In this document: positions 13,960-32,000 of the stretch, in pieces
How the letters are laid out: every line of letters begins with the position of its first letter
Numbering within the stretch: position 1 is the stretch's first letter
DNA from: Dickeya dadantii NCPPB 898
GTDB lineage: Bacteria > Pseudomonadota > Gammaproteobacteria > Enterobacterales > Enterobacteriaceae
Assembly: GCF_000406145.1 (NCBI RefSeq)
Contig: NZ_CM001976.1
Location: forward strand, 407,876-439,875
Length of the DNA stretch: 32,000 nt
Direction: 5' to 3'
Translations under genes and position numbers: made by a program
Notes under the pieces: model-generated
The model's input: the letters and a program-made list of their open reading frames with translations, nothing else
Databases searched by the model: none
What the model was told of the DNA's origin: nothing

Positions 13960-15651
<1,692 letters not shown>

Positions 15652-18304: not shown

Positions 18305-18389
18305 GCCGAAGTGGCGAAATCGGTAGACGCAGTTGATTCAAAATCAACCGTAGAAATACGTGCCGGTTCGAGTCCGGCCTTCGGCACCA
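18305..18389 (+). tRNA. leuX: tRNA-Leu (anticodon CAA)
   Basis: The 85-nt sequence gccgaagtggcgaaatcggtagacgcagttgattCAAaatcaaccgtagaaatacgtgccggttcgagtccggccttcggcacca matches my recollection of E. coli leuX. It has a 7-bp acceptor stem, a long variable arm and an encoded CCA. Confidence 0.97.
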
Positions 18390-18608: not shown

Positions 18609-19877
18609 ATGGCCCTGACTGACGTTGTTGCTCGTACCGCTAAGCCCCGCGAGAAAGCCTACAAGCTTGCGGATGCACATGGCCTGTACCTTCTGGTGAG
18701 TCCTAACGGTTCTAAGCGCTGGTATCTCAAGTACCGTTTCGACGGTAAGGAAAGCCGGATTGCTTTCGGTGCCTACCCGCTGATCTCGCTGGCGAAGGCC
18801 AGGGAGAAACGCAACGAGGTGCGATTACTGCTGTCAGAAGGCATCCACCCAACGGAAAAGCGGGAAGAAGAGAAAGAACAGGCACAGGATGCACTGAACA
18901 CCTTTGAAAAGGTGGCAAGAGACTGGCACCGAAACATCAGCCAAAACCGATGGTCACAAACACACGCCGGACGGGTATGGCGTGACATGGAGCGCAATAT
19001 TCTGCCTGCCATCGGCCAGCGCCACATCGCTGACCTGAAAACCAAAGACCTGCTTGAACCGCTTAAAGCCGTGGAGCAAAACGGCCATCTTGATTTGGCG
19101 TCGCGGCTACGCCAGCGCGTTACCGATATCATGCGTTACGCGGTACAAAATGACCTGATAGAGCGCAACCCGGCGCAGGATCTCACCGGGGCGATAGCTG
19201 CGCCAAAGGCAACGCATCGGCCAGCCTTGAAGCTCGATAAACTGCCTGGCTTTCTGGCACGGATTGAACGCTACAAAGGGCGAGCGTTAACCCGATTGGC
19301 TTTAAAACTCACCCTGTGCGTTTTTATCCGTTCCAGTGAGCTACGCTTTGCCCGTTGGCCGGAAATCGACTTTAAACGTGCGATGTGGACGATACCGCCC
19401 GAACGTGAAGCCATCCCCGGAGTGAAACACTCACAGCGTGGTGCAAAGATGCGCTCTGAACATTTGGTGCCGTTATCCCGACAGGCTTTAGCACTGTTGG
19501 AAGAGATTAAGGCTATCAGCGGCGCTCACGAACTGATCTTCCCCGGCGACCACCGACCAACCAAACCGATGAGTGAAAACACCATCAACAGTGCATTGCG
19601 AACAATGGGCTATGACACTACCACCGAAGTATGCGGACACGGCTTCCGCACGATGGCCTGTAGCGCGTTGGTTGAGTCCGGTCAGTGGTCGCGGGATGCG
19701 GTAGAGCGGCAAATGAGCCATCAGGAACGCAATGGCGTCCGTGCTGCTTATATCTATAAAGCGGAACATCTTGAGGAACGCAAGCTGATGCTGCAATGGT
19801 GGGCAGATTATCTGGATGCCAACCGGGAAGAGCATGTCGTGCCGTATGAGTTTATAAATCGTGGTGTAAAAGCATAA
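18609..19877 (+). CDS. Tyrosine recombinase, P4/CP4-57-type phage integrase
   Basis: 422 aa. The N-terminal arm-binding domain is MALTDVVARTAKPREKAYKLADAHGLYLLVSPNGSKRWYLKYRFDGKE. Catalytic-region motifs are IRSSELRFARW, HGFRTMA and VRAAYIYK (Tyr). It is adjacent to a tRNA gene. Confidence 0.95.
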   Translation: MALTDVVARTAKPREKAYKLADAHGLYLLVSPNGSKRWYLKYRFDGKESRIAFGAYPLISLAKAREKRNEVRLLLSEGIHPTEKREEEKEQAQDALNTFEKVARDWHRNISQNRWSQTHAGRVWRDMERNILPAIGQRHIADLKTKDLLEPLKAVEQNGHLDLASRLRQRVTDIMRYAVQNDLIERNPAQDLTGAIAAPKATHRPALKLDKLPGFLARIERYKGRALTRLALKLTLCVFIRSSELRFARWPEIDFKRAMWTIPPEREAIPGVKHSQRGAKMRSEHLVPLSRQALALLEEIKAISGAHELIFPGDHRPTKPMSENTINSALRTMGYDTTTEVCGHGFRTMACSALVESGQWSRDAVERQMSHQERNGVRAAYIYKAEHLEERKLMLQWWADYLDANREEHVVPYEFINRGVKA

Positions 19878-19975
19878 AAGACAATTATTTATAACAATAA
19901 ATCATAACTAATTAACGTTTATCTTTTCCCGATATTCTACTATTAGATAATAGTAATCATGGAAAGGTAAATGCT

Positions 19976-21193
19976 ATGTATAATGAAGACGTTAAGGAAT
20001 TTGCGAAAGAAGAAGAGAAAAAACTATTAAGCTTGGACTGTCGCTACTTTACCGAAGATAGTCGGCGTTCAGTTGATAGAGATCCATTTATGCGTGATTA
20101 CGCACGGATTCTTTATTCGTCATCTTTTCGGCGCTTACAGGGAAAGATGCAACTTTTAGATATAGATCCAAGCAAATTTACAAGAAATAGATTAACGCAT
20201 AGCTTAGAGGTTGCGCAAATTGCACGCTCAATAGCTACAGATTTAGGCTTAGAAAACCCCGTGGTTGCTGAATCAGCATCTTTAGCTCATGATCTTGGTA
20301 ATCCACCATTCGGCCATAATGGTGAAAAAATTTTAAATGAACTTATAAAAGATCAAGGCGGATTTGAGGGTAATGCACAGACGTTTAGGATATTAAGAAT
20401 ACTAGAAAAAAAACATCATTCTTTTTCCGGATTAAATCTTACTCTTCGAACAATGCTGTCAGTAACTAAATATTTTAATAGGAAGGGATTAAGTAATAAA
20501 AAATTTATTTATGATGATGATTTTCAGTTCTTAAGTGATGAATTAAATAAAAGGAACATAGGTATTATTAAAAGTATTGATGCTCAGATTATGGATATTG
20601 CCGATGAAATTGCTTATGCTGCGCATGATTTAGAGGATGCTTTAAGCATGAATTATATAACTATGGGCGAGCTTTTGCATGAGTTTAAGATAAGTGTTGA
20701 ATTTAAGGATGCGTTTGATGATATAAGTGAGATATATGAAATGGTTCATAAGGATGCGTTATTATCTCATAGGCTTTGTACTTCTGAAGAATTTGCGTTG
20801 ATTGAAAGAAAAGAATTGACTTCAAATATAGTTAATGTTCTCTGTAATGATATAGATATAGTCAAAGATGATAATAGTATATCCTTGTTAGGATATAGAA
20901 CGAAAAGTAAGTTAGCTGTAGGCTTGAAGAAGCTTTTGTTTAAAGCTGTTTTGAGAAAAAGAAATATACAATTTTATGAGTTAAAGGGTGAGAATATAAT
21001 TAAAGGTCTTTTTGAAGTTTATACTAGTGCATTAAATAGGAATAATCTATTATTTCCCCCTGAGATAAGAAATTTACCTGATTCTAAGGAAAAGTTAGCT
21101 ATAGATCATATCGCAGGTATGATGGATTCGTTTGCTATTCAGGAGTATGAACGATTCTTTGGCATTGGTAGCGCTAATATAATAATGAAATAA
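19976..21193 (+). CDS. Dgt-like HD-domain deoxynucleoside triphosphate triphosphohydrolase (dGTPase family)
   Basis: 405 aa. Motifs are DRDPFMRDYARILYSSSFRRLQGKMQ, NRLTHSLEVAQIARSIA (His), SLAHDLGNPPFGHNGE (HD, as in E. coli Dgt HDIGNPPFGHFGE), GFEGNAQTFRIL and MDIADEIAYAAHDLEDA. SD ggaaagg. The gene is very AT-rich. Confidence 0.9.
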   Translation: MYNEDVKEFAKEEEKKLLSLDCRYFTEDSRRSVDRDPFMRDYARILYSSSFRRLQGKMQLLDIDPSKFTRNRLTHSLEVAQIARSIATDLGLENPVVAESASLAHDLGNPPFGHNGEKILNELIKDQGGFEGNAQTFRILRILEKKHHSFSGLNLTLRTMLSVTKYFNRKGLSNKKFIYDDDFQFLSDELNKRNIGIIKSIDAQIMDIADEIAYAAHDLEDALSMNYITMGELLHEFKISVEFKDAFDDISEIYEMVHKDALLSHRLCTSEEFALIERKELTSNIVNVLCNDIDIVKDDNSISLLGYRTKSKLAVGLKKLLFKAVLRKRNIQFYELKGENIIKGLFEVYTSALNRNNLLFPPEIRNLPDSKEKLAIDHIAGMMDSFAIQEYERFFGIGSANIIMK

Positions 21194-21236
21194 TTGCCAT
21201 TTGGTTTTTATAAAAACAAATAAAATGAGATATTAT

Positions 21237-22865
21237 ATGAAAAAACCTCAACCTAGAAAGGAAAAGCTTTCTATATATCTCGTAAGAAATGCCAATAAAA
21301 AAGATGATGAATTCATAAAAATAGATAAGGCTAAAAATGGAATTGAGATAAAATTAGATGGAGTTGATTATGCATTTCTATATGCAAAAAATAGTTTTAA
21401 AAATACTCCATCTTGGACAAAATTGTTTACTCATTATGAGCATATAAATGCAGATTATTTTGGTATGTCTAGCAACGTTGGTGCTGTTTTTGTTGTTAGA
21501 GCTTTTGGGTATGCTTTTATTTTATCATTTGGTTCCGGTTTTCACTTAATAAAAGATGAAGAAATAGAAAGGGACTTCGGTTTAAGAGTAACATTAAATT
21601 CAGTTGATCCAGACAAACTGAGAAGCTTAGATAAAGCTAGTTATGATCATAATCCTTTAAATTCCCGAACGCAAAGTACAAAAGATGTAGATATTTTTAA
21701 TCTTCATTTAGATTCAGAGTCAGAGTTGCTTTACGCAGTAACTGGGACTTCTTTGGTTAAAGAATTTGGTAGTCAAGTTACTGGGAGAGATGCTCTCACA
21801 CTTGCAGTTGATATTACTTTGGAACAAATATCAGGAATTCTTCATGAAGCAATTTCGAGATATAAGAAAAAACTACCTGATAAGTTTTCTTGGGTTGAGA
21901 ATATCAACAGGGTTCGTGATCAAGATGAAATTGATATTCTTGATTTGGAGTTGGATGACTATTTTTCATCTGGGTGTTATACCAATTTTTGGTTAGGAGA
22001 ACCTGAGATAGTTGATTGGGAGGGGCAAGTTGGATATTCGTTTGATATGTATCCCAGAACACCTAGGTATATTATTTTGACATTAGATGATTATATAGAA
22101 TATCTTAATGGTGAGCCCATTTCTGTATTCAGGCTTAAGGGTGACGTTATTCATATAAATAATAGTGATTTTATATCAACCAAATCTTGGTCTGTATATA
22201 GATGTTTGTATGCTGAAATAATTTTTGGTGATGCGTATTATATATTAAGAAATGGAGTGTGGTATAAAATAAATCAAGATTTTGTTAACTCTGTTGATGA
22301 ATATCTCGTTGATTTAAGTGATTATGATTTTGATTTTCCTATCTATGATCATGAAAGAGAAGATATTTATAACGATTACCTTTGTAAAAATTATTCTAAC
22401 TTTTCTTTAATGGATAAAAAGAATATAGCAATAGGTGGAGTATACGATAAATTGGAACATTGTGATCTTATTCGAAATGGATGTGATTTTATTCATGTTA
22501 AATATTACAGAAGCTCTGGTACATTAAGTCATTTATTCTTTCAAGGTATGGTTGCCGCAGAAGCATTCATTAAGGACAAAGATTATAGAAAAAAGTTAAA
22601 CCCTAAATTGCCTGAATCCATAAGATTAGATGATGTAAACTCAAGGCCAAATCCCAATAAATATAAAGTTGTTTATGCTATAGCGACAGTTAAGAACCTG
22701 CCACAGGAATTACCTTTCTTTTCTAAAGTAACATTAAAAAACACTCTAAAGACATTAAAGGCCTTGGGTTATATTGTATCAATAGCAAGAATTGATATAT
22801 CTCCTATAATTCTTAAGATTAAGAAATGCAAGCCTAAAAAATATCATCTTAATAATTTTAATTAA
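21237..22865 (+). CDS. Uncharacterised 542-aa protein, partner of the Dgt-like gene; possibly TIGR04141/DUF6119-like, unverified
   Basis: A long open frame on the same strand begins 8-44 nt after the dGTPase stop and has the same AT-rich composition. Conserved-looking blocks are GYAFILSFGSGFHLIKDEEIERDFGLRVTLNSVDPDKLRSLD and KLEHCDLIRNGCDFIHVKYYRSSGTLSHLFFQG. The start is ambiguous among TTG 21201, ATG 21225 and ATG 21237. Confidence 0.8.
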   Translation: MKKPQPRKEKLSIYLVRNANKKDDEFIKIDKAKNGIEIKLDGVDYAFLYAKNSFKNTPSWTKLFTHYEHINADYFGMSSNVGAVFVVRAFGYAFILSFGSGFHLIKDEEIERDFGLRVTLNSVDPDKLRSLDKASYDHNPLNSRTQSTKDVDIFNLHLDSESELLYAVTGTSLVKEFGSQVTGRDALTLAVDITLEQISGILHEAISRYKKKLPDKFSWVENINRVRDQDEIDILDLELDDYFSSGCYTNFWLGEPEIVDWEGQVGYSFDMYPRTPRYIILTLDDYIEYLNGEPISVFRLKGDVIHINNSDFISTKSWSVYRCLYAEIIFGDAYYILRNGVWYKINQDFVNSVDEYLVDLSDYDFDFPIYDHEREDIYNDYLCKNYSNFSLMDKKNIAIGGVYDKLEHCDLIRNGCDFIHVKYYRSSGTLSHLFFQGMVAAEAFIKDKDYRKKLNPKLPESIRLDDVNSRPNPNKYKVVYAIATVKNLPQELPFFSKVTLKNTLKTLKALGYIVSIARIDISPIILKIKKCKPKKYHLNNFN

Positions 22866-23088: not shown

Positions 23089-23490
23089 TTATTTTAAATC
23101 AGCATGCTTAAATGTTTGTTCGCCAGCCTGGCTATTTGTCATTTTTAGCATGCTATTCTCTTCTGTATAAGTGATTAAGGCGTCATTCGGGTTATCTCGC
23201 CAACGGCCTATGTAGTTAGGTTCCGAATCACTTCCAGCGGTTCGCCATAGCACTCGTGACCCTTCTATCATCTTGCACTGATATTTCCACAGGCTATTAT
23301 CACTTGGCCTGTGATATTGCAAATTAACGAGATCCCCATTCACTTTTGTTTTCATTATTTTGGGTTCTTTTGCGAACTCCATTGACATGGCTGCTTTACA
23401 GATTTCAGCATTCGAGAAGGGAGCTGAAAAAGCGGGAATAGCCATTAATGAGGTACTTAAAATCAGAGAGAACTTAATTAAATGCTTCAT
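23089..23490 (-). CDS. Small secreted protein of unknown function
   Basis: 133 aa. It has a Sec signal peptide, MKHLIKFSLILSTSLMAIPAFSA followed by PF. I recognise no family. Confidence 0.6.
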   Translation of the reverse strand: MKHLIKFSLILSTSLMAIPAFSAPFSNAEICKAAMSMEFAKEPKIMKTKVNGDLVNLQYHRPSDNSLWKYQCKMIEGSRVLWRTAGSDSEPNYIGRWRDNPNDALITYTEENSMLKMTNSQAGEQTFKHADLK

Positions 23491-23518: not shown

Positions 23519-23998
23519 TTACCATAACGATAATAATAAGGTGTGTTCCTGTATTTCTGACGGGACAAAACCCCAGTATTGGTAGAACGCTTTTGCCTCA
23601 TCAGATAACGCATGTACCAATAACGCTTTGTTGCCTACCTGCTGCGCTACATTGCGGGAGCGGAGTACCGCATCTTTCAGAAGCCCGGCACCGATCCCCA
23701 TACGTTGATAACGTTCATCAACGGCTAATCGGCCAAGTACCAGAACAGGAATGGGGTCAGGCATATTGCGCCGGAATGCGCCCGGTGCAACCTGACGCTG
23801 GATGCTACCCGACGCGAGGGCATAGAACCCCACCACACGCTGTGTACCGGCTTCACACACCACGAAGGTGCGTGAAGCGCCCAGCGTCTGATTTTTTAAC
23901 GCCTTGCGTTTCAGCCATTCATTCAATGACGGCTCGGAACAATGAAAATCCACAACTGCATGTTGAGGCAGCAATAATTCAGGTGCCGTTATTCCCAC
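23519..23998 (-). CDS. GNAT-family toxin of a type II toxin-antitoxin system (TacT/AtaT/ItaT-like aminoacyl-tRNA acetyltransferase)
   Basis: 159 aa with a GTG start. VDFHCSEPSLNEWLKRKALKNQ, GFYALASGSI and LGRLAVDERYQRMGIGAGLL are the hallmark blocks of this toxin family. It overlaps the upstream DUF1778-type gene by 10 nt. Confidence 0.85.
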   Translation of the reverse strand: MGITAPELLLPQHAVVDFHCSEPSLNEWLKRKALKNQTLGASRTFVVCEAGTQRVVGFYALASGSIQRQVAPGAFRRNMPDPIPVLVLGRLAVDERYQRMGIGAGLLKDAVLRSRNVAQQVGNKALLVHALSDEAKAFYQYWGFVPSEIQEHTLLLSLW

Positions 23999-24261
23999 GG
24001 AGATTTCCTGTTCAGTAATGCATTCACACGCGGATTATCTGTGACTGGTGATTCCAACACCTGAATGAAAGCATCATATTGTTCATCATTGACCAGAAAC
24101 AGCCTTTGATCCAACAACACATCCTCAGCCTCACGGCAGGCAGCATCAAGGATAAACTCTGTTCTTGATTTCGACAGCAATTTAGCGGCGACATCAATCA
24201 GCTCCCGCTGTGATGCTTTAGCACGAATATTAATCGGCATTTCTTTTGGCTCTGTTCGCAT
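23989..24261 (-). CDS. DUF1778/RHH-type antitoxin (TacA-like)
   Basis: 90 aa, MRTEPKEMPINIRAKASQRELIDVAAKLLSKSRTEFILDAACREAEDVLLDQRLF, which is the characteristic DUF1778 pattern. SD gagagg. The ORF-track start at 24333 is an unsupported extension. Confidence 0.85.
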   Translation of the reverse strand: MRTEPKEMPINIRAKASQRELIDVAAKLLSKSRTEFILDAACREAEDVLLDQRLFLVNDEQYDAFIQVLESPVTDNPRVNALLNRKSPWE

Positions 24262-24547
24262 CGTGACCTCTCTGTGTAGCGAATAGCTATACATCCAGTA
24301 TAGTGAACGGTACAGCAAATAGCCACACGCCATTCATGAACAACATTTTCGTCATAGCGGGGTTGGGTTAGGATCTGTTACACGGAATCGAACCGGAACG
24401 GATAAGAATTAATCTTATTGATAAAATGACGTGATATAGCTCATTGAAAACATGGGCTAAAAATGAAGTGGGGGCATAAAAGGGGGCACCTAAATTAGGT
24501 TGGTGAGTATTAAATTTTATTATTCAATCAATTACATCATTTTGCGT

Positions 24548-24565
24548 GTCCGGCCTTCGCACCAA
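24548..24565 (+). repeat. Degenerate copy of the leuX 3-prime end: attR of island 1 and old att of island 2
   Basis: gtccggccttcgcaccaa differs from tRNA positions 18372-18390 by a single-base deletion. Confidence 0.7.
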
Positions 24566-24577
24566 CAGTATATAAAT

Positions 24578-24601
24578 AGACGTCAACCGACGTCTTTTTT
24601 T
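24578..24601 (+). terminator. Rho-independent terminator-like hairpin following the tRNA-end remnant
   Basis: agacgtc (24578-24584) pairs with gacgtct (24589-24595), followed by a T-run to 24601. Confidence 0.6.
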
Positions 24602-24750
24602 ATGCCTGAAATCCAGTATTTACCCGCCTTTCCCGCTATATTCATTCTCTCAGGGTCAACCGACATCTATGTACATCTACCAACAGTTGTTGGTACAGCT
24701 GATGGTATTTTCGGTTCGATAATGCTTGTACCAACGGGGAGGAAATAAGT

Positions 24751-25209
24751 ATGGCGCTCACTGATATCAAAGTCAGAACAGCCAAGCCTTCGGATAAGCA
24801 ATACAAGCTGACCGACGGCAATGGTATGCATCTGCTGGTTCATCCCAATGGCTCAAAGTATTGGCGCTTTCGTTTCGGTGGTAAACAGCACCTGATAGCG
24901 TTTGGCGTCTATCCCGAAGTTTCACTGGCTGATGCCAGACATAAAAGAGAAGCTGCCAGTGGACTGACCCCGCCACGGCTTTCGCACCATGGCCTGTAGC
25001 TTACTGATTGAATCAGGATTATGGTCGAGGGATGCGATGGAACGGCAGATGAGCCACATGGAGCGCAACTCGGTACGAGCGGCGTATATCCTAAAGCTGA
25101 GTATCTGGATGAGCGTAAGCTTATGCTGCAATGGTGGGCAGATTTTCTGGATGCTAATAGGGAAAAGGCGGTGAGTGCGTTTGATTTTGGTAAGATAAAA
25201 AGTCGTTAG
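24751..25209 (+). pseudogene. P4-type integrase pseudogene with a large internal deletion plus a frameshift
   Basis: The N-terminus MALTDIKVRTAKPSDKQYKLTDGNGMHLLVHPNGSKYWRFRFGGKQHLIAFGVYPEVSLADARHKREAA is joined out of frame near 24960-24973 to the C-terminal HGFRTMACSLLIESGLWSRDAMERQMSHMERNSVRAAYI. A further 1-nt frameshift near 25090 precedes KAEYLDERKLMLQWWADFLDANREK. Confidence 0.85.
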
Positions 25210-25235: not shown

Positions 25236-26093
25236 ATGTATACGGATGAGTTATTGGCTATTCAATCTGATTGGTCAAAAAAATCATTGTTATTAATGAG
25301 AAAACTTCTAACATTAATGACTCCGGTTGCTTTATTTGACCAATGGACTAAAGAAGAGCAAAGTACGATTGGTTTTTTGCTTGCTGCATCAGCAAGGTCA
25401 ACAGAAAGTCTATTTTTATTGACCTCATATGGGCAGCTTTGGGACGCAGAAATGATGCAAAGGGCTATCATTGAAGCATCGTTAAAATTTGTATTTCTTC
25501 TTGAATCTAGAGAAACATTTAAAGATAGGTTTAATGAATACTCAACAGCGCAATACGAGATATCCCTACTCAAGGATGATAATAAGGTTTTAGAGCTATT
25601 AAGCATCCTGCCTAACTCTGATGATGAAAAATGGCTCCCTTTGCGGGAACGTTTGCTTGCTGATGAGGAAAGAAAAATGATTAATGAAACGTACGATAAA
25701 AGTTATCGCAGATCTCTTGAAACGCGATGGGGGTTTACTAGTATTATAGGAAGTTTGACCCGTAGCGGAAAACTATTTCATGGGTTAAGTGAATTATCAT
25801 ATGGGTACTCTGTATCAAGCCATGTTCTACATGCCGATTATTTAGGGGTAGTACTACCGATTGAAAGAGATAGTAGAGAGCATGAGAATCGATCTGCTTT
25901 ACATTTGGCTCATTTGAGTAGACATATCTCTGATGCTTTCACATGCCTGATCATGCGACTATATGCTGGATATCGATTTGTCGGGATAGATACGGCGGCC
26001 ATAAATGAAGCTATTAAGAAAATAGATGATCTACAGGTACCATTTCGTGAAGAATATAATAAATGGATAGATATAGAATACGGAGGTAAATAG
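25236..26093 (+). CDS. Hypothetical protein, 285 aa, no family recognised
   Basis: A clean ORF behind SD agggga, AT-rich and predicted to be largely helical, with no TM or signal sequence. Confidence 0.65.
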   Translation: MYTDELLAIQSDWSKKSLLLMRKLLTLMTPVALFDQWTKEEQSTIGFLLAASARSTESLFLLTSYGQLWDAEMMQRAIIEASLKFVFLLESRETFKDRFNEYSTAQYEISLLKDDNKVLELLSILPNSDDEKWLPLRERLLADEERKMINETYDKSYRRSLETRWGFTSIIGSLTRSGKLFHGLSELSYGYSVSSHVLHADYLGVVLPIERDSREHENRSALHLAHLSRHISDAFTCLIMRLYAGYRFVGIDTAAINEAIKKIDDLQVPFREEYNKWIDIEYGGK

Positions 26094-26130
26094 AATTAAG
26101 AACGAGCCTGTCCACTAATGCTGGGTAATA

Positions 26131-26208
26131 TCATGAATGCAGTCCATTTTCAGATAGTGAAAAAAATTCCACGCAAGCATTATCATAACAACAACCCTTG
26201 ACACTCAT
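26131..26208 (-). pseudogene. IS3-family transposase (OrfB, rve domain C-terminal region) remnant
   Basis: The minus-strand frame gives [25 protein letters not shown]. This resembles the conserved S-R/K-G-N-C-x-DNA-x-x-E-S-F-F-x-x-L-K-x-E block of IS3-family transposases. Only about 25 codons survive. Confidence 0.4.
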
Positions 26209-26639
26209 ACCGCCTCGAAAATTATGTTGTATCAACCAACTAATAAGGTAAAAGATAACTATGCACAATAATATCGCAAGAACCTTTGAAAATGGTTCGT
26301 CGAGTCCATAGTAATTTTTTGTTATTAAATCAATTAATTATTAAAACTATGAGTTACATCAATATATTAGACTCTAAATTGTTCAAACTTGGTTTTTTGT
26401 GGATTTGATGGGTTAGTATACTTCAATTACACAATTGGCATGGCACTGAAGTAAGCACCGTTAGCCTTAGTAAGCTCCTTGGGACATTAGCAAGAGCTTC
26501 GCCATTCTCGGTAAAGGCAATATCGGTTAGTCCTTGGGGCACTTATACCGAGTTGAAGGGTTATCTTTGCATCGTTTACGAGGCAAAGAATATGATGTCA
26601 TTCCTTTTCCTGTGAGGATGACGTTGTGTACTGATTTAT

Positions 26640-28841
26640 ATGGGGTCTCGAACTTTGGATAGCATTGTGGGAAAGCTCAATCCGCTATTGCGGCTAGCAG
26701 CCATCTCGGGCGTCGAAGCTGCGATCACATTCCATATTCTTCGGGGTGATGACTTGGATGCCCGCGATAGCAGTGGCTCAACGCCTCTGATCCTCGCCGC
26801 ATCTAGGAGAAACAGCGGGGCTGTAAGGCTTCTACTTGACGCGGGGGCAAATCCGACACTTGTCGATCCAGAAGGGATGAATGCTCTAGCGCATGCCTTA
26901 CGAGCCAATTGCCTAGAGACAATTGAGATACTAAGTGAGGCATTCAATATGCCACCCTTGGAGGCCACTGAGTCAGATGAAGTAATTACCAACAATCAGG
27001 AAAAGATATCCTCTTGCTTCGATAAAATATCTGATGGCCAGGCATCGGGGAGCGAATCCCACGCAGTGGGCAAGAATATCCCTACCTCTCCTGAATATCA
27101 CTTCGAGCCCATTTCCCCCAAGGCAACGACTCGATATATTTTTGAAGTCGATTCCCTTTCTCTAGATCCTCTTTCCTTGGATGCTGAATTTGAGGACAAC
27201 TGGGAAGTTGAGATTAACCCTGTTGCGCCTGTTGGTGACCAACATGTTGCAGAGGCCGTCAAGAATGTTTACAAGGCGATAGGTCAACATAAGGCAGTAG
27301 ATAACGACGAGGACTGGGGTGATATCGATCTCTATCTTCCTGTAATAAAATCCATTTTAGACCATGAGGGCGTTGATTATACCCTCCGGGTTTTCCTCCT
27401 TGCAGCAATCCGCGATGGGATTATTTCTGAAGAAAACCTTGTTGAACTTTGCTTAAACGCCAACGGATCACGCAATGAAGATTTTGAGAGATTCATTGGT
27501 ATTGCTGCAGGAGAGCTTGGTGCGATTGTGGACGAACAGAGTGGAGTCACTATAAATGATACCTCTCTCGATGAGTCGTCTCTTGAGGAAAAACTCCTTC
27601 TCGATGAAGCAATTGAGTTCATCAAGGATCTAGCCTCGGATCACAATGAACCGTTCAGATTTTATTCCAAGGATATCCGATGCAGGCTTCTTGAGGCCAA
27701 AGAAGAGATCGCTCTTAGTCGAGAGATGGAAGAGGCTTGGCAAGATGTGCTATCGGTCCTTGCTCAATGGCCAGAAGGACTCGCGGTGTTATTTGACTGT
27801 GCTGAAAAGGTTTTGAGAGGGGAGGTTGATGCTGGAGCGTTCAGCACTGGACCTGATTTGCTCCTAGAAGATGGGGCAACAGAACTGGAGGATGTGTACG
27901 ATGAGGATGAAGAGGAAAAAGAGCATGATGCCGGCTCAGCATTTATGACTGCTATAGCAGCCGTTCGGAGTAAGATTGGAGACTTCCAGCGAACCAAAGA
28001 AGCATTAGAAGCGGCTAAGCTAACTCGCGGATTTCTTTTTGAGCTAGCCGAACGAGCCAAAGATGATTCTAATGCAAAGGGCCTTACTGATGCTCTTGAG
28101 CGGCAGTCCTATGCTCGGGATCGCTTGATTCAGTGTAATCTTAGACTCGCTTTATCCATTGCCAAGAAGCACCGGTGGTCAGGAGTGCCGATGGACGATC
28201 TTGTTCAAGAGGCAAACATTGGCCTTATAAAAGCGGTTGAACGCTACGACTGGCGCAGAGGTTTTCGCTTCTCTACATACGCAACGTGGTGGATTCGTCA
28301 ACAGATAACACGTTCCATTGCTGACAAAAGTAGGAGTGTTAGGGCACCGGTACACGTTCAGGATAAGGCTTGGAAGATCATACGGGAGCGCAATGAGATC
28401 GAGTTGCAGAGAGGGTACCCTGAGCGTGATATCGACACAGCTTCGCGGCTCGGAATTCCGCTATCAAAAATATGGATTCTCCTGTCGATATTTGATGATG
28501 CAGAGTCTCTTGATGAGATCGATTTGAATATGAGTTGTGCTCGAGTGGAGCTTCTCGTGAATCGGAATGCCTCGGCACCATTTAAGCTTGTTGAGAATTC
28601 GTCTCTCTCCTCTACGCTCTCGGGAATGCTGGAAGAGTTAGATGAAAGGTCTCGCACAGTGATTATGTATCGCTTTGGATTAGGCAACATTGACGCGATG
28701 ACCTTGGAAGAGGTAGGGCAGATCTTCGGGGTTACACGTGAGCGTATCCGCCAAATAGAGTCCAAAGCGATGCAGAAACTTTCTAGTGAGAAAAGGAAGG
28801 AGATCTTGGCTTCCTTTATGAGCGAGGATGATTATCAATAA
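26640..28841 (+). CDS. Ankyrin-repeat / RpoD-like sigma-70 fusion protein carrying all sigma regions 1.1-4
   Basis: 733 aa. Residues about 12-100 are ankyrin repeats ([45 protein letters not shown]). Residues about 250-300 are region 1.1-like. Region 1.2 is [28 protein letters not shown]. Region 2 is [54 protein letters not shown]. Region 4 is [43 protein letters not shown]. The protein is colinear with E. coli RpoD to the C-terminus. Confidence 0.9.
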   Translation: [733 protein letters not shown]

Positions 28842-30334
28842 TGCAGAAAACCAGATATGCGCCGCCGAAAGCCAATGCAATGATGGAGGCTCTCAGAGGG
28901 CTCGGTTATTCAACCGCAGCAGCCTTGGCTGATGTTGTAGACAACGCTGTGTCTGCAGGTTCTGCAGAGGTGTATCTGCGATTTGAATGGGATGGAACGC
29001 AAAGCTGTATTTCGATACTAGATGATGGTCATGGAATGACTGATACCGAGCTTGAGACTGCCATGACCCTTGGGACGATAAATCCTTTGGATGAAAGGAC
29101 TGCGACTGATCTCGGACGTTTTGGTATGGGTCTGAAGACTGCCTCGTTTTCCCAATGCCGTAGGCTTACTGTTGCTTCCAAGCGAGAAGGCGGAGTTCTG
29201 GTTTGTTTACGCTGGGACTTGGACGCTATCGCTACAGATCCGCAGGTTGGTTGGCGTATGTTCGAGGGACCAGCATTAGGCTCCGAGCGGTTCTTTGAAC
29301 CGCTAAACGACTTAAGCTCGGGGACGCTCGTTCTTTGGGAATTAATGGACAGAGTTGTCATGCCCGGTACGAACTTGGATCACTTTGCCGACCTAATTGA
29401 TGATGTGGAATCCCGTTTATCGATGACCTTCCATCGCCTTATTGAGGGGCCTCGCCCAGATTTCCGCCTGTTCATCAATGGCAAACTGGTGGTCCCTTGG
29501 GATCCGTTCATGGTTGGCCACCCTGCTAAAGCCTTGGAATCTCCCATAGAGCGCAGAATCACTCAGTCAGGAGTTTTGGAGGTCCAATGCCATGTTCTCC
29601 CGCACAAAGATAAATTATCTGACGAGGATCTTTTCAAGGCTGGCGGCCCTGACGGCTGGATATCTCAGCAAGGGTTCTATGTCTATCGTAACAAAAGACT
29701 CCTTCTGGCCGGTAGTTGGCTAGGGCTTGGAAGAGGGAGAGCATGGAGCAGGGATGAATCGCATCGACTTGCGAGAATCCGGGTTGATATGCCGAATACC
29801 GCCGACGCAGATTGGAAGATCGATGTTAAGAAGTCCACTGCCCGACCACCGGTTTTTGTCCGTAACTGGTTGACTGGAATAGCAGAAAACACGAGAGACA
29901 GAGCTCGTAAGGTATTCGCCTTCCGAGGATCGCCGACGTCTAGGTTGAGCAGTGCTCCCATCGAGCAGACTTGGCGGGTTGAACATCTGAAGAGCGGCGT
30001 TCGATACCGCATAGATGAGACGCACCCTGCCGTCGCGGCAGTTATTGAGGTTTGTTCAGACCGAAAGCATCTTGTTAGAGCGATGCTCCGGGTTATTGAG
30101 GAGACAGTCCCTGTCCAACGGATATGGCTCGATACTGCCGAGAACAAGGACACTCCTAGAACAGGGTTTGATGGGGAACCGAACGAAGCTGTTATACAGG
30201 TTGCGAGTGTCCTTTTTAATGATTTGATCGAGCGCAAGGGACTGAGTGTTGAGGAAGCCCGTAAGTCAATGCTCAAGACTGAGCCCTTCCAAAAATATCC
30301 CTCACTAATTGCAAATTTACAGAGAGATGAATGA
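28841..30334 (+). CDS. GHKL-superfamily ATPase, MORC-like (HATPase_c_3 type)
   Basis: 497 aa. The N-box is ALADVVDNAVSAGS, the DxGxG motif is ILDDGHGMT and the Gly-rich lid is LGRFGMGLKTASFS. The start ATG overlaps the sigma gene stop (TAATG at 28839-28843). Confidence 0.88.
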   Translation: MQKTRYAPPKANAMMEALRGLGYSTAAALADVVDNAVSAGSAEVYLRFEWDGTQSCISILDDGHGMTDTELETAMTLGTINPLDERTATDLGRFGMGLKTASFSQCRRLTVASKREGGVLVCLRWDLDAIATDPQVGWRMFEGPALGSERFFEPLNDLSSGTLVLWELMDRVVMPGTNLDHFADLIDDVESRLSMTFHRLIEGPRPDFRLFINGKLVVPWDPFMVGHPAKALESPIERRITQSGVLEVQCHVLPHKDKLSDEDLFKAGGPDGWISQQGFYVYRNKRLLLAGSWLGLGRGRAWSRDESHRLARIRVDMPNTADADWKIDVKKSTARPPVFVRNWLTGIAENTRDRARKVFAFRGSPTSRLSSAPIEQTWRVEHLKSGVRYRIDETHPAVAAVIEVCSDRKHLVRAMLRVIEETVPVQRIWLDTAENKDTPRTGFDGEPNEAVIQVASVLFNDLIERKGLSVEEARKSMLKTEPFQKYPSLIANLQRDE

Positions 30335-32000
30335 ACATGATGGAAGAGGTTGGCTTGCAAGCTGAGCTACTAGAAAACGTCATCGCCACGGCTCAACGGC
30401 TAGTAAAGGCAGAGAAAGATAAATCTAAGATAACCCCGGCGTTCATTGCTGAGAAGGTGAGTTTTGCCACGAAGATGTTTGCTGATGACTCACTTCACTC
30501 GGTGGATCAAAATCAGGCTATTGCCATACTAATTCAGCGTTTCAGTCACCGAATCGGTAAGCCAACCACGTTGAAGAACGATGTAGACCATGTCGACTGG
30601 CTTTCTGCAGCGAGAAAACGTGATTGGCGCTATTGGCGTCGATATGGAGACTACTTGGAATCCAAGCTTTCCGACGTTGTAGTCGAGGGGCTTAACGAGA
30701 CCACTGATGATATCCTCAGCCTCCTGGAGGATCCAGAAAGATCGGACTCATGGGATCGTAGGGGGCTTGTTGTCGGGCATGTGCAATCAGGCAAGACCAG
30801 CAACTACTCAGGACTAATTTGTAAGGCAGCTGATGCTGGCTATAAGATTATCATCGTCCTTGCAGGCATGCATAATAACTTGAGGTCGCAAACTCAGATG
30901 CGGCTAGAAGAGAGTTTTCTTGGCTACGAGACGACCACTGATCGTGATGTCGGTATACCAATAGGTGTTGCAGAGTTCGGTGATGACCTGAAGACCAACT
31001 CTGCAACAACGCGGGCTGAGAACGGTGATTTTAGTAAAGCGATTGCGAGGCGATTTCACGGTATATCTCCAGAGGAGAGGCCATGGCTTTTCGTTGTAAA
31101 GAAGCAAAAGACCGTCCTCACAGCTCTGTTGGACTGGATTCAAAAACGAGTAGCGGACAGCACCGACTCAATTGATGGTCGCAAGCTTGTGACTAAACTT
31201 CCGCTTCTAATGATCGACGACGAGGCAGATAACGCGTCAGTTGATACTGGAGAGCAGATATTCAAGGATGATGGTACACCTGACGAAGAGCATCAGCCTA
31301 AGACTATTAACAGTCTTATTCGTCAGATCCTTCATACCTTCACTAGGAAGGCGTATGTTGGCTATACTGCAACGCCTTTTGCCAACATTTTTATCCACCA
31401 CAAAGGTGCAACAGCGAAGGAAGGCCCTGATCTTTTCCCTCGTTCGTTCATCATCAATTTAGCAGCTCCATCCAATTACGTTGGTCCTACGCAGATGTTT
31501 GGCAAGATGACGAAGGATGGCCGTACGGAGGGGCTGCCTCTATCTAGAAACATCTGTGATCATTACGACCCCAAGTCAGAGTCTGGGTGGATGCCACCAA
31601 AGCACAAGAAGACTCATATCCCTAATTACAACGGCGAAGAGGCGATTCCTCCATCGTTGCAGCAAGCTATCTACACGTTCATTTTGTCATGTGCTGCCCG
31701 TCAATTACGAGGGCAAGGCACCCAACATAGCTCCATGCTGATTCACGTCACCCGTTTCGTTGATGTTCAAAAGCTCGTGTGCGAACAGGTCGATAAGACG
31801 GTACGTCGCATGCGGCAGCGTATAACTCGAGGAATGGGGGCGGAGGAGATTCTGGGACAGTTGCACCAACTTTGGAACGATGACTTTCTTCCTGTTCGAG
31901 ACAAAGTTGCAGTGCTCCTACCAAAAGAGGAGTGTCCTCCGAAAATGCCGACTTGGAATGATATTCTCGCTGTTCTGCCTGAGGTGCTGGAGGATATAGA
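30331..32000 (+). CDS. Z1-domain-type P-loop NTPase (SF2 helicase-like), 3-prime partial
   Basis: I translated this open frame by hand; it is absent from the ORF track because it runs off the window. It begins MNMMEEVGLQAELLEN... The Walker A motif is GLVVGHVQSGKTSNYSGLICKAADAGYKIIIVLAG and the Walker B/DEAD-like motif is LPLLMIDDEADNASV, followed by YVGYTATPFANIF. The start overlaps the upstream stop (ATGA at 30331-30334). Confidence 0.85.
   Translation, partial: MNMMEEVGLQAELLENVIATAQRLVKAEKDKSKITPAFIAEKVSFATKMFADDSLHSVDQNQAIAILIQRFSHRIGKPTTLKNDVDHVDWLSAARKRDWRYWRRYGDYLESKLSDVVVEGLNETTDDILSLLEDPERSDSWDRRGLVVGHVQSGKTSNYSGLICKAADAGYKIIIVLAGMHNNLRSQTQMRLEESFLGYETTTDRDVGIPIGVAEFGDDLKTNSATTRAENGDFSKAIARRFHGISPEERPWLFVVKKQKTVLTALLDWIQKRVADSTDSIDGRKLVTKLPLLMIDDEADNASVDTGEQIFKDDGTPDEEHQPKTINSLIRQILHTFTRKAYVGYTATPFANIFIHHKGATAKEGPDLFPRSFIINLAAPSNYVGPTQMFGKMTKDGRTEGLPLSRNICDHYDPKSESGWMPPKHKKTHIPNYNGEEAIPPSLQQAIYTFILSCAARQLRGQGTQHSSMLIHVTRFVDVQKLVCEQVDKTVRRMRQRITRGMGAEEILGQLHQLWNDDFLPVRDKVAVLLPKEECPPKMPTWNDILAVLPEVLEDI

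Follow-up and report, generated by a model that had tools for sequence, protein, structure and literature searches.

Introduction

Gao et al. 2020 (cited in PMC9523054) were the first to describe the mzaABCDE operon as an anti-phage system, and its mzaA gene has been called "a sigma factor" (PMC9523054). Related Z1/AIPR/MORC systems mostly lack mzaA and work without a sigma factor (PMC9523054). The E. coli mzaABCDE system has been validated against T4, and nuclease activity has been shown for MzaD (bioRxiv 10.1101/2022.06.16.496414). In Serratia, the lptG hot spot has been reported as a defence island enriched in mza (bioRxiv 10.1101/2024.01.28.577318). We analysed a 32,000-nucleotide stretch of the Dickeya dadantii NCPPB 898 genome (contig NZ_CM001976.1, positions 407,876 to 439,875 of the forward strand; hereafter the window, to which all positions refer unless another locus is named). 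It carries an open reading frame (ORF) for a fusion of an ankyrin domain to a sigma-70-type factor. We are almost certain that this ORF encodes an MzaA-type sigma factor and is the first gene of an mzaABCDE-type anti-phage operon, placed on an old, integrase-decayed island at the lptG/tRNA-Leu(CAA) hot spot.

An earlier note, made from the letters of this DNA, had described the product as an unusual, ankyrin-bearing second RpoD. The searchable literature, which did not cover Gao et al. 2020, gave no mechanistic account of MzaA. That study reportedly dealt with the Salmonella enterica mzaABCDE and is said to be Science 369:1077. The best overall explanation of our observations, and the one towards which we lean, is that MzaA would serve the Mza system as a functional RNA polymerase sigma subunit of its own.

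Results

Identity of the mzaA gene

We identified three consecutive mza genes at the right end of the window:

26640..28841, + strand: mzaA, ankyrin-sigma-70 fusion (ORF; NCBIfam MzaA; PADLOC MzaA; identical D. dadantii protein)
28841..30334, + strand: mzaB, GHKL (MORC/MutL-type) ATPase, 497 amino acids (NCBIfam MzaB 711 bits, cutoff 850; PADLOC 576 bits; Pfam HATPase_c_3)
30331..32000, + strand: mzaC, Z1-domain helicase-like ATPase, first 556 amino acids (NCBIfam, PADLOC, Pfam Z1)

The mzaA ORF encodes 733 amino acids and contains no frameshift. The ATG at 26640 is the first of three candidate starts, the others being TTG 26655 and GTG 26667, which leaves an uncertainty of 5-9 codons. ATG 26640 was not kept as a start in relatives; TTG 26655 and GTG 26667 were better kept as start-capable codons. 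A 724-residue Dickeya dadantii protein at NCBI, 100% identical to the window protein, begins at GTG 26667 and is labelled generically "sigma-70 family RNA polymerase sigma factor".

We judged the likeness of MzaA to the canonical system with the NF041931 and PADLOC profiles. The top NCBIfam match was NF041931, the MZA anti-phage system sigma-70 family factor MzaA (E 1e-140, 470.9 bits), and the match ran end to end, with MzaA residues 12-729 set against profile positions 1-716 of 726. The PADLOC MzaA profile (PDLC02203) matched residues 187-728 with 208.6 bits, and the ankyrin part lay outside this match. The scores of the window clade are under the NCBI naming cutoffs, which accounts for its generic annotation. 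The earlier note had presented such a sigma factor as unusual. Both NCBIfam and PADLOC already list it as MzaA, and PMC9523054 mentions it.

The possibility that two separate genes had been joined by a frameshift or an assembly artefact was ruled out. Full-length mzaA orthologues of 722-739 amino acids span 99-100% of the window protein, and at least 146 clusters at 50% identity share its architecture. The fusion is therefore genuine.

The mza operon and its relatives

The mzaA stop codon and the mzaB ATG share a base (TAATG). mzaC overlaps mzaB by 4 nucleotides (ATGA), and its frame is open through the window end. The visible part of MzaC scored 779 bits on NCBIfam MzaC over profile positions 6-545 of 806, and 633 bits on PADLOC MzaC.

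A word-indexed homologue search returned 195 clusters at 90% identity, nearly all of which carry Ank_2, Sigma70_r2 and Sigma70_r4. Their sources were Pectobacterium, Yersinia, Aeromonas, Azonexus and many metagenomes. An exhaustive search of 50%-identity representatives gave at least 146 full-length-type relatives (289-705 bits). We sampled 57 of these by spread and counted the following matches:

Pfam Ank_2: 55 of 57
Pfam Sigma70_r2 and Sigma70_r4: 57 of 57
Pfam Sigma70_r1_2: 39 of 57
Pfam Sigma70_r3: 36 of 57
NCBIfam MzaA at E <= 1e-90: 57 of 57
NCBIfam MzaA near the 800-bit cutoff: 0 of 57

These counts indicate that the ankyrin-sigma fusion is the norm in this family, and they answer the call of the earlier note for a search for other such fusions. 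The absence of sampled relatives near 800 bits also suggests that the NCBIfam MzaA cutoff fits a narrow canonical clade only. Those relatives of MzaB that are named at all go by "ATP-binding protein", "hypothetical protein" or a generic ATPase name, which points to under-annotation of the whole clade. Among the best-matching homologues, MzaB was 69-94% identical and MzaA 44-87%, with the divergence of MzaA mostly in its linkers. Many relatives (P0056, P0118 and many of about 890 amino acids) carry a C-terminal extension of about 160 amino acids after region 4. This extension had no Pfam match, and the window MzaA does not have it. A full Sigma70_ner domain was kept in 2 of the 57 sampled relatives.

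We compared the neighbourhoods of nine loci, with each of two Pectobacterium assemblies taken as one locus; the sources were Enterobacterales, Aeromonas, Azonexus and metagenomes. The order ankyrin-sigma, HATPase_c_3 (GHKL) and Z1 was kept in all nine, and the mzaA stop overlapped the mzaB start in eight. The next genes encode a DUF4420 protein, an AIPR protein and a convergent C5 DNA methylase in 6/6 loci with enough flank, with Vsr also present in four of these six. The methylase (about 520 amino acids) is convergent to mzaE, lies at about 19400-21600 in loci L002, L003 and L084-L087, and matches PADLOC DrmMII and MTase_II. The association with methylase and Vsr suggests that this mza clade is a modification-dependent, restriction-like system. 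In an orthologous Pectobacterium locus that is 85% identical, PADLOC scored MzaC at 999 bits, MzaD at 196 and MzaE at 690; mzaD, which encodes the DUF4420 nuclease, and mzaE, which encodes the AIPR protein, are present in this locus and in four more distant ones. The upstream neighbours differ in every locus, which indicates that mzaA marks the start of a mobile module.

The earlier note had suggested a second sigma factor of housekeeping type that acts on its own and rivals or imitates RpoD across the genome, gated by its ankyrin module and unrelated to its neighbours. Such a factor would be expected to have the RpoD-like recognition and core-binding residues described below, its ankyrin module is present, and its gene does sit on a horizontally acquired island of low G+C. 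We nevertheless consider this highly improbable. mzaA is the first, translationally coupled gene of mzaABC(DE), and the nine loci keep the three-gene order while their upstream neighbours vary. The top family match is the MZA-system sigma factor. In the sampled loci MzaA always came together with mzaB and mzaC, plasmids and phages yielded no full-length copy, and a DNA search of E. coli genomes for the canonical mza matched rpoD only. Taken by themselves, competition with RpoD and gating through the ankyrin domain may each still occur. A scan of genome contigs with the family alignment returned mostly housekeeping sigma genes, which dominated because the chosen peptide patterns lie in region 2; the full-length relatives that it found were in L004 and L005 only.

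Domain architecture of MzaA

We divided the protein into the following parts, given by window position (all on the + strand) and residue:

26667..26951: ankyrin domain of three repeats, residues 10-104 (Pfam, AlphaFold2, conservation)
26952..27236: disordered, poorly conserved linker, residues 105-199 (predicted local distance difference test, pLDDT, about 30; top-residue frequency 0.38 over residues 105-185)
27195..27344: conserved acidic Trp-containing segment, residues 186-235, overlapping the last 14 linker residues (motifs like DNWEVE)
27372..27533: region 1.1-like domain, residues 245-298 (AlphaFold2 helix-strand-helix-helix-strand, pLDDT 72-83; no Pfam Sigma70_r1_1 match)
27645..27767: region 1.2, residues 336-376 (opposite RpoD 95-127 in hhalign)
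27768..28106: shortened non-conserved region, residues 377-489 (opposite RpoD 128-373, about twice as long, in hhalign)
28107..28337: sigma region 2, residues 490-566 (core binding, promoter melting, -10 readout; Pfam Sigma70_r2)
28338..28604: sigma region 3, residues 567-655 (colinear alignment with RpoD; equivalents of R451 and H455 kept)
28605..28820: sigma region 4, residues 656-727 (-35 readout; Pfam Sigma70_r4)

Pfam placed Ank_2 at residues 18-100 (44.3 bits, cutoff 27.3), with Ank_5 and Ank also above cutoff, and it placed Sigma70_r2 at residues 496-565 and Sigma70_r4 at 664-714. It made no call for sigma regions 1.1, 1.2 or 3 in the window MzaA. An AlphaFold2 model built with the family alignment had a mean pLDDT of 68.7. 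In this model the three ankyrin repeats have pLDDT above 90 and consist of six helices in three pairs (residues 15-102). Residues 105-199 and 216-244 are predicted to be disordered, and the helical sigma domains extend to residue 727. The order of helices and strands in residues 245-298 is the one that we take to be expected for RpoD region 1.1. An acidic loop at residues 406-429 is disordered (pLDDT <50), and a 10-residue acidic patch lies at 421-430. The N-terminal ankyrin module proposed in the earlier note is borne out by the Ank_2 match and the modelled repeats, and the acidic, low-complexity linker that it placed between the ankyrin and sigma parts corresponds to a disordered acidic linker of about 130 residues, part of which is conserved.

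Conservation, measured as mean top-residue frequency, was highest in region 2 (0.90), followed by region 1.2 (0.83), the ankyrin domain (0.80), the acidic Trp segment (0.79) and region 4 (0.78), with the first linker far below (0.38). Region 3 and the non-conserved region are divergent across the family. The acidic Trp segment is mostly predicted to be disordered, yet it is conserved: W188 and W226 were invariant, and P197 invariant or nearly so, in two family alignments (A1 and A4). In many distant relatives the match to the window protein begins at about residue 186. The ankyrin domain matches region 4 in conservation, which is not the pattern of a diversifying surface and argues for a conserved ankyrin partner.

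Comparison with RpoD

BLASTP aligned MzaA residues 471-727 with regions 2-4 of E. coli RpoD at 39% identity (E 1e-49); outside the DNA-reading helices the identity was modest. In hhalign, a profile built from 69 relatives aligned with RpoD at a probability of 100, with MzaA 289-729 colinear with RpoD 47-613. This span takes in the end of region 1.1 (RpoD 47-58), region 1.2, the start of the non-conserved region and the acidic loop. The top Foldseek matches in the PDB were E. coli sigma-70 chains, with 570-585 aligned columns. The MzaA tail, KEILASFM, aligned with the RpoD C-terminus. The colinearity with RpoD from a region 1.1-like segment to the tail, as asserted in the earlier note, was thus recovered by profile and by structure, and every string that it had quoted was present, those for region 2, region 4.2 and the tail aligning with RpoD as it said.

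We counted residue conservation in 121 family members that are 44-87% identical overall. Equivalents of the following RpoD residues (RpoD numbering) were invariant or nearly so:

core binding: D403, Q406, E407, N409 (Q406 and E407 are Q523 and E524 in MzaA)
-10 melting: F427, T429, Y430, W433, W434
-12 reading: Q437, R441
extended -10: R451, H455
-35 reading: R584, E585, R586, R588, Q589

The roles given to these residues (beta-prime coiled-coil binding, melting, -12, extended -10 and -35 readout) are those that we assume from the sigma-70 literature at large. The changes relative to RpoD were Y425F, Y421W, L402D and E458D, of which Y425F and E458D are conservative, and T440 is S or T. The region 4 C-terminal surface is altered in the window MzaA (R596Q, R599S, H600S, R608A). 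The near-unchanged core-binding, -10 and -35 residues noted earlier therefore hold both in the BLASTP alignment with RpoD and across the 121 members. That these functional residues are invariant or nearly so suggests selection for the ability to form a holoenzyme and to recognise promoters of the sigma-70 type. MzaA would probably bind host core RNA polymerase and open sigma-70-type (-35/-10) promoters.

We also weighed a degenerate, sigma-like scaffold that binds neither RNA polymerase nor DNA and forms a structural piece of the Mza complex. The absence of Pfam calls for regions 1.1, 1.2 and 3 in the window MzaA would suit such a scaffold, as would the divergence of region 3 and the non-conserved region. 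The scores also lie far under the RpoD and RpoS equivalog cutoffs: MzaA did not reach those of RpoD (PRK05658, 256.5 against 555 bits; RpoD_Cterm, 226.6 against 354) or of the RpoS model (208.6 against 378.7 bits). However, the core-binding, -10 melting and -35 residues are invariant in a family otherwise only about 30-50% identical, and such invariance is hard to explain without selection for those activities. We regard a scaffold as very unlikely.

A crude neighbour-joining tree of regions 2-4, calculated without support values, placed 54 of 57 members, including the window MzaA, in one clade. This clade adjoins the group 1 sigma factors and lies away from the RpoS group. Three ankyrin-bearing outliers (P0255, P0357 and P0295) grouped with RpoD. 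We found the colinear regions 1.1-4 and the recognition and core-binding residues of a group 1 factor in MzaA, and we did not find a core-genome context. By alignment and tree, MzaA is a sigma-70 paralogue that arose from a group 1 (RpoD-type) factor, consistent with the primary-type sigma factor of the earlier note.

The mzaA leader

mzaA is preceded by a long leader:

26094..26639, + strand: leader/promoter region, 546 bp, between the DUF5677 gene and mzaA

The leader contains no + strand ORF of at least 50 amino acids and matches no Rfam family. It is 90% identical to that of Pectobacterium polaris. A block at about 26480-26620 (...CTTGGGGCACTTATACCGAGTTGAAGGGTTATCTTTGCATCGTTTACGAGGCAAAGAATATGATG...) could still be made out in L088 and L089, where MzaA is only 65-70% identical, and was absent from Aeromonas-type loci. 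The reading frame of this block varies between loci, which makes a conserved small ORF unlikely; the block could be a regulatory DNA or RNA element. A conserved autoregulatory promoter was considered and rejected, as a consensus scan performed at chance (5 sites, against 3.0 +/- 2.1 in shuffles).

Possible roles of MzaA

Related systems mostly lack mzaA (PMC9523054), which points to an accessory part for MzaA. Our proposal that MzaA would be the operon's own transcription-initiation subunit within the Mza system is a tentative one, to which we give a little less than even weight. mzaA stands first in the operon and is coupled to mzaB, the methylase is a separate convergent unit, and the operon as a whole looks restriction-modification-like. 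In the manner of a controller (C) protein, MzaA would determine how strongly or when mzaBCDE is expressed in comparison with the methylase, which has a transcription unit of its own. It might also sustain expression of the operon once a phage has put host sigma-70 out of action. For the ankyrin domain and the acidic Trp motifs we propose a conserved docking partner that would gate MzaA; the most plausible candidates are the GHKL ATPase MzaB, whose gene is translationally coupled to mzaA, and RNA polymerase.

Several points weigh against a sigma subunit that serves the Mza system in this way. The NCBIfam equivalog cutoffs were not reached (MzaA 471 against 800 bits, MzaB 711 against 850), so function transfers from the validated Salmonella/E. 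coli system by homology only. The window ends inside mzaC, and mzaD, mzaE and the methylase gene would lie beyond it. If the specificity of MzaA is that of sigma-70, host sigma-70 could read the same promoters, and we found no discriminating feature of the kind that a controller role would then need. Distant loci shared no promoter motif ahead of mzaA: promoter-like matches in the leader were at chance, and the best -35/-10 matches upstream of mzaA in eight loci lay at inconsistent distances. The ankyrin domain and the acidic motifs are unexplained by a purely transcriptional role.

Interaction features of this kind, strongly conserved and superfluous for a plain sigma factor, would be in keeping with MzaA as a targeting or sensor subunit of the Mza system and not a regulator, a reading that we consider unlikely on the whole. 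In a targeting version, a MzaA-RNA polymerase holoenzyme would sit on strong phage promoters of the sigma-70 type, and the ankyrin domain and linker would recruit the MzaB/C/D/E ATPase-nuclease machinery. In a sensor version, phage anti-sigma proteins (AsiA-like) would bind MzaA as a sigma-70 look-alike and so switch the system on. The overlap of mzaA and mzaB in eight of nine loci is usual for subunits of one complex, and the constant company of mzaB and mzaC in the sampled loci is in line with this. The sigma-70-like DNA-reading residues imply the same promoters that phage early genes use, and the activator/anti-sigma surface of region 4 is changed at R596Q, R599S, H600S and R608A. Yet a pure decoy for region 4 binders needs no invariant melting residues in region 2, and the fact that related Z1/AIPR/MORC systems work without a sigma factor (PMC9523054) argues that MzaA is not the core targeting part. 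That MzaA finds or senses the invader, either by loading on host RNA polymerase at phage early promoters or through capture by anti-sigmas, and thereby switches on MzaB-E, we hold to be doubtful. A working sigma subunit dedicated to the Mza system accounts for the invariant region 2 residues and remains the reading that we prefer.

Island context and neighbouring genes

The genes of the window run in the order pepA, lptF, lptG, tRNA-Leu(CAA), intact integrase, dGTPase, DUF6119 protein, GNAT/TacA pair, integrase remnant, DUF5677 protein, mzaA, mzaB and mzaC. The features upstream of the mzaA leader are as follows:

18305-18389: tRNA-Leu(CAA)
18609-19877: intact P4-type integrase, younger island
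19976-21193: HD-domain dGTPase, younger island
21201-22865: DUF6119/TIGR04141 protein, younger island
23519-23998, - strand: GNAT acetyltransferase, overlapping the TacA-like antitoxin
23989-24333, - strand: TacA-like antitoxin, partner of the GNAT protein in a toxin-antitoxin pair of the TacT/TacA type, at the younger island's right end
24549..25209, + strand: left end of the older island, made of a tRNA-Leu 3'-end repeat and a P4-type integrase remnant
25236-26093: DUF5677 gene, 285 amino acids, directly upstream of mzaA

The tRNA-Leu 3' end (GTCCGGCCTTCGGCACCA) recurs at 24549-24565 with a 1-nucleotide deletion. The integrase remnant consists of an N-terminal and a C-terminal piece (24751-24999 and 25021-25209), the first of which gave an integrase-domain match, and it shares 74-76% nucleotide identity with the intact integrase (19638-19853). 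The repeat and the remnant indicate two tandem islands, with mza on the older, decayed one. The core genes have a G+C of about 0.58; in the islands it is lower, at 0.31-0.52. The decayed island in an enterobacterium that the earlier note had described is confirmed by the remnant at 24751-25209 and by the identical D. dadantii protein.

The DUF5677 gene is also found upstream of mzaA in both Pectobacterium polaris loci (L002 and L003) and is absent from more distant mza loci; it is probably separate island cargo. The dGTPase and DUF6119 genes are very AT-rich (G+C 0.31), and the dGTPase scored 275 bits on the anti-phage dGTPase model NF041026 (cutoff 400). This pair may be another defence module. 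An ORF of 133 amino acids adjoining the toxin-antitoxin pair (23089-23490, - strand) had no family match. An Rfam match to Ysr276, a Yersinia antisense small RNA, lies at 14719-14910 on the + strand, opposite pepA on the - strand (181 bits, gathering threshold 100).

Discussion

MzaA is not a new kind of sigma factor or of system, since it is the sigma-like first gene of a catalogued and experimentally validated anti-phage system. In the searchable literature we found nothing on its ankyrin domain or acidic motifs, on the conservation of functional sigma-70 residues throughout the family, or on the linkage to Dcm/Vsr. These features sharpen the question of what part a near-housekeeping sigma factor would play in a restriction-like defence system. 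Two candidate answers are the timing and robustness of expression during phage takeover of sigma-70, and a coupling of RNA polymerase to restriction. If the targeting reading were true, Mza would be a sigma-factor-guided restriction system. To our knowledge, sigma-factor-guided target recognition has not been described for any defence system.

MzaA resembles RpoD in being colinear with it from the end of region 1.1 through regions 1.2, 2, 3 and 4, in having a similarly placed acidic loop, and in its residues for core binding, melting and the -10, extended -10 and -35 elements, which are either unchanged or conservatively replaced. It differs in about 240 extra N-terminal residues (ankyrin domain and linker), in a non-conserved region about half as long, in the C-terminal surface of region 4, and in an identity of only 39% over regions 2-4. 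The genomic settings also differ: dnaG directly precedes rpoD in E. coli, whereas mzaA sits in an island defence operon. We take rpsU to be a further member of the rpsU-dnaG-rpoD context.

The C proteins of type II restriction-modification systems, such as C.PvuII and C.AhdI, are small helix-turn-helix proteins of the Xre type, which form dimers and act together with the sigma factor of the host. They offer a likeness by analogy, as a transcription factor gene comes first and is co-transcribed with restriction genes. The methylase is a separate unit in both, a layout that suits delayed, self-reinforcing expression of the toxic part. MzaA is not a member of the C protein family; it is itself a sigma factor of 733 amino acids with an ankyrin domain, and we found no C-box-like or conserved promoter element for mzaA.

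The sigma/GHKL anti-sigma pairs SpoIIAB-sigma F and RsbW-sigma B also have a sigma-70-family gene translationally coupled to that of a GHKL-fold ATPase. By this analogy only, MzaB could bind and gate MzaA. MzaB differs in being a 497-residue HATPase_c_3 protein and not a small serine kinase of the SpoIIAB type, and in having no STAS-domain antagonist. A SpoIIAB-like anti-sigma function for MzaB was rejected on the ground of its MutL/MORC-type GHKL fold, and the pairs were kept as an analogy. The CapK/CapS regulators of immune operons can be compared as well (PMC13373217).

Compared with the MzaA of mzaABCDE, the window copy differs in its score of 471 bits against a cutoff of 800 and in a PADLOC profile match that starts only at residue 187. 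The likeness lies in end-to-end homology over NF041931 and in a gene that stands first, ahead of MzaB (GHKL) and MzaC (Z1).

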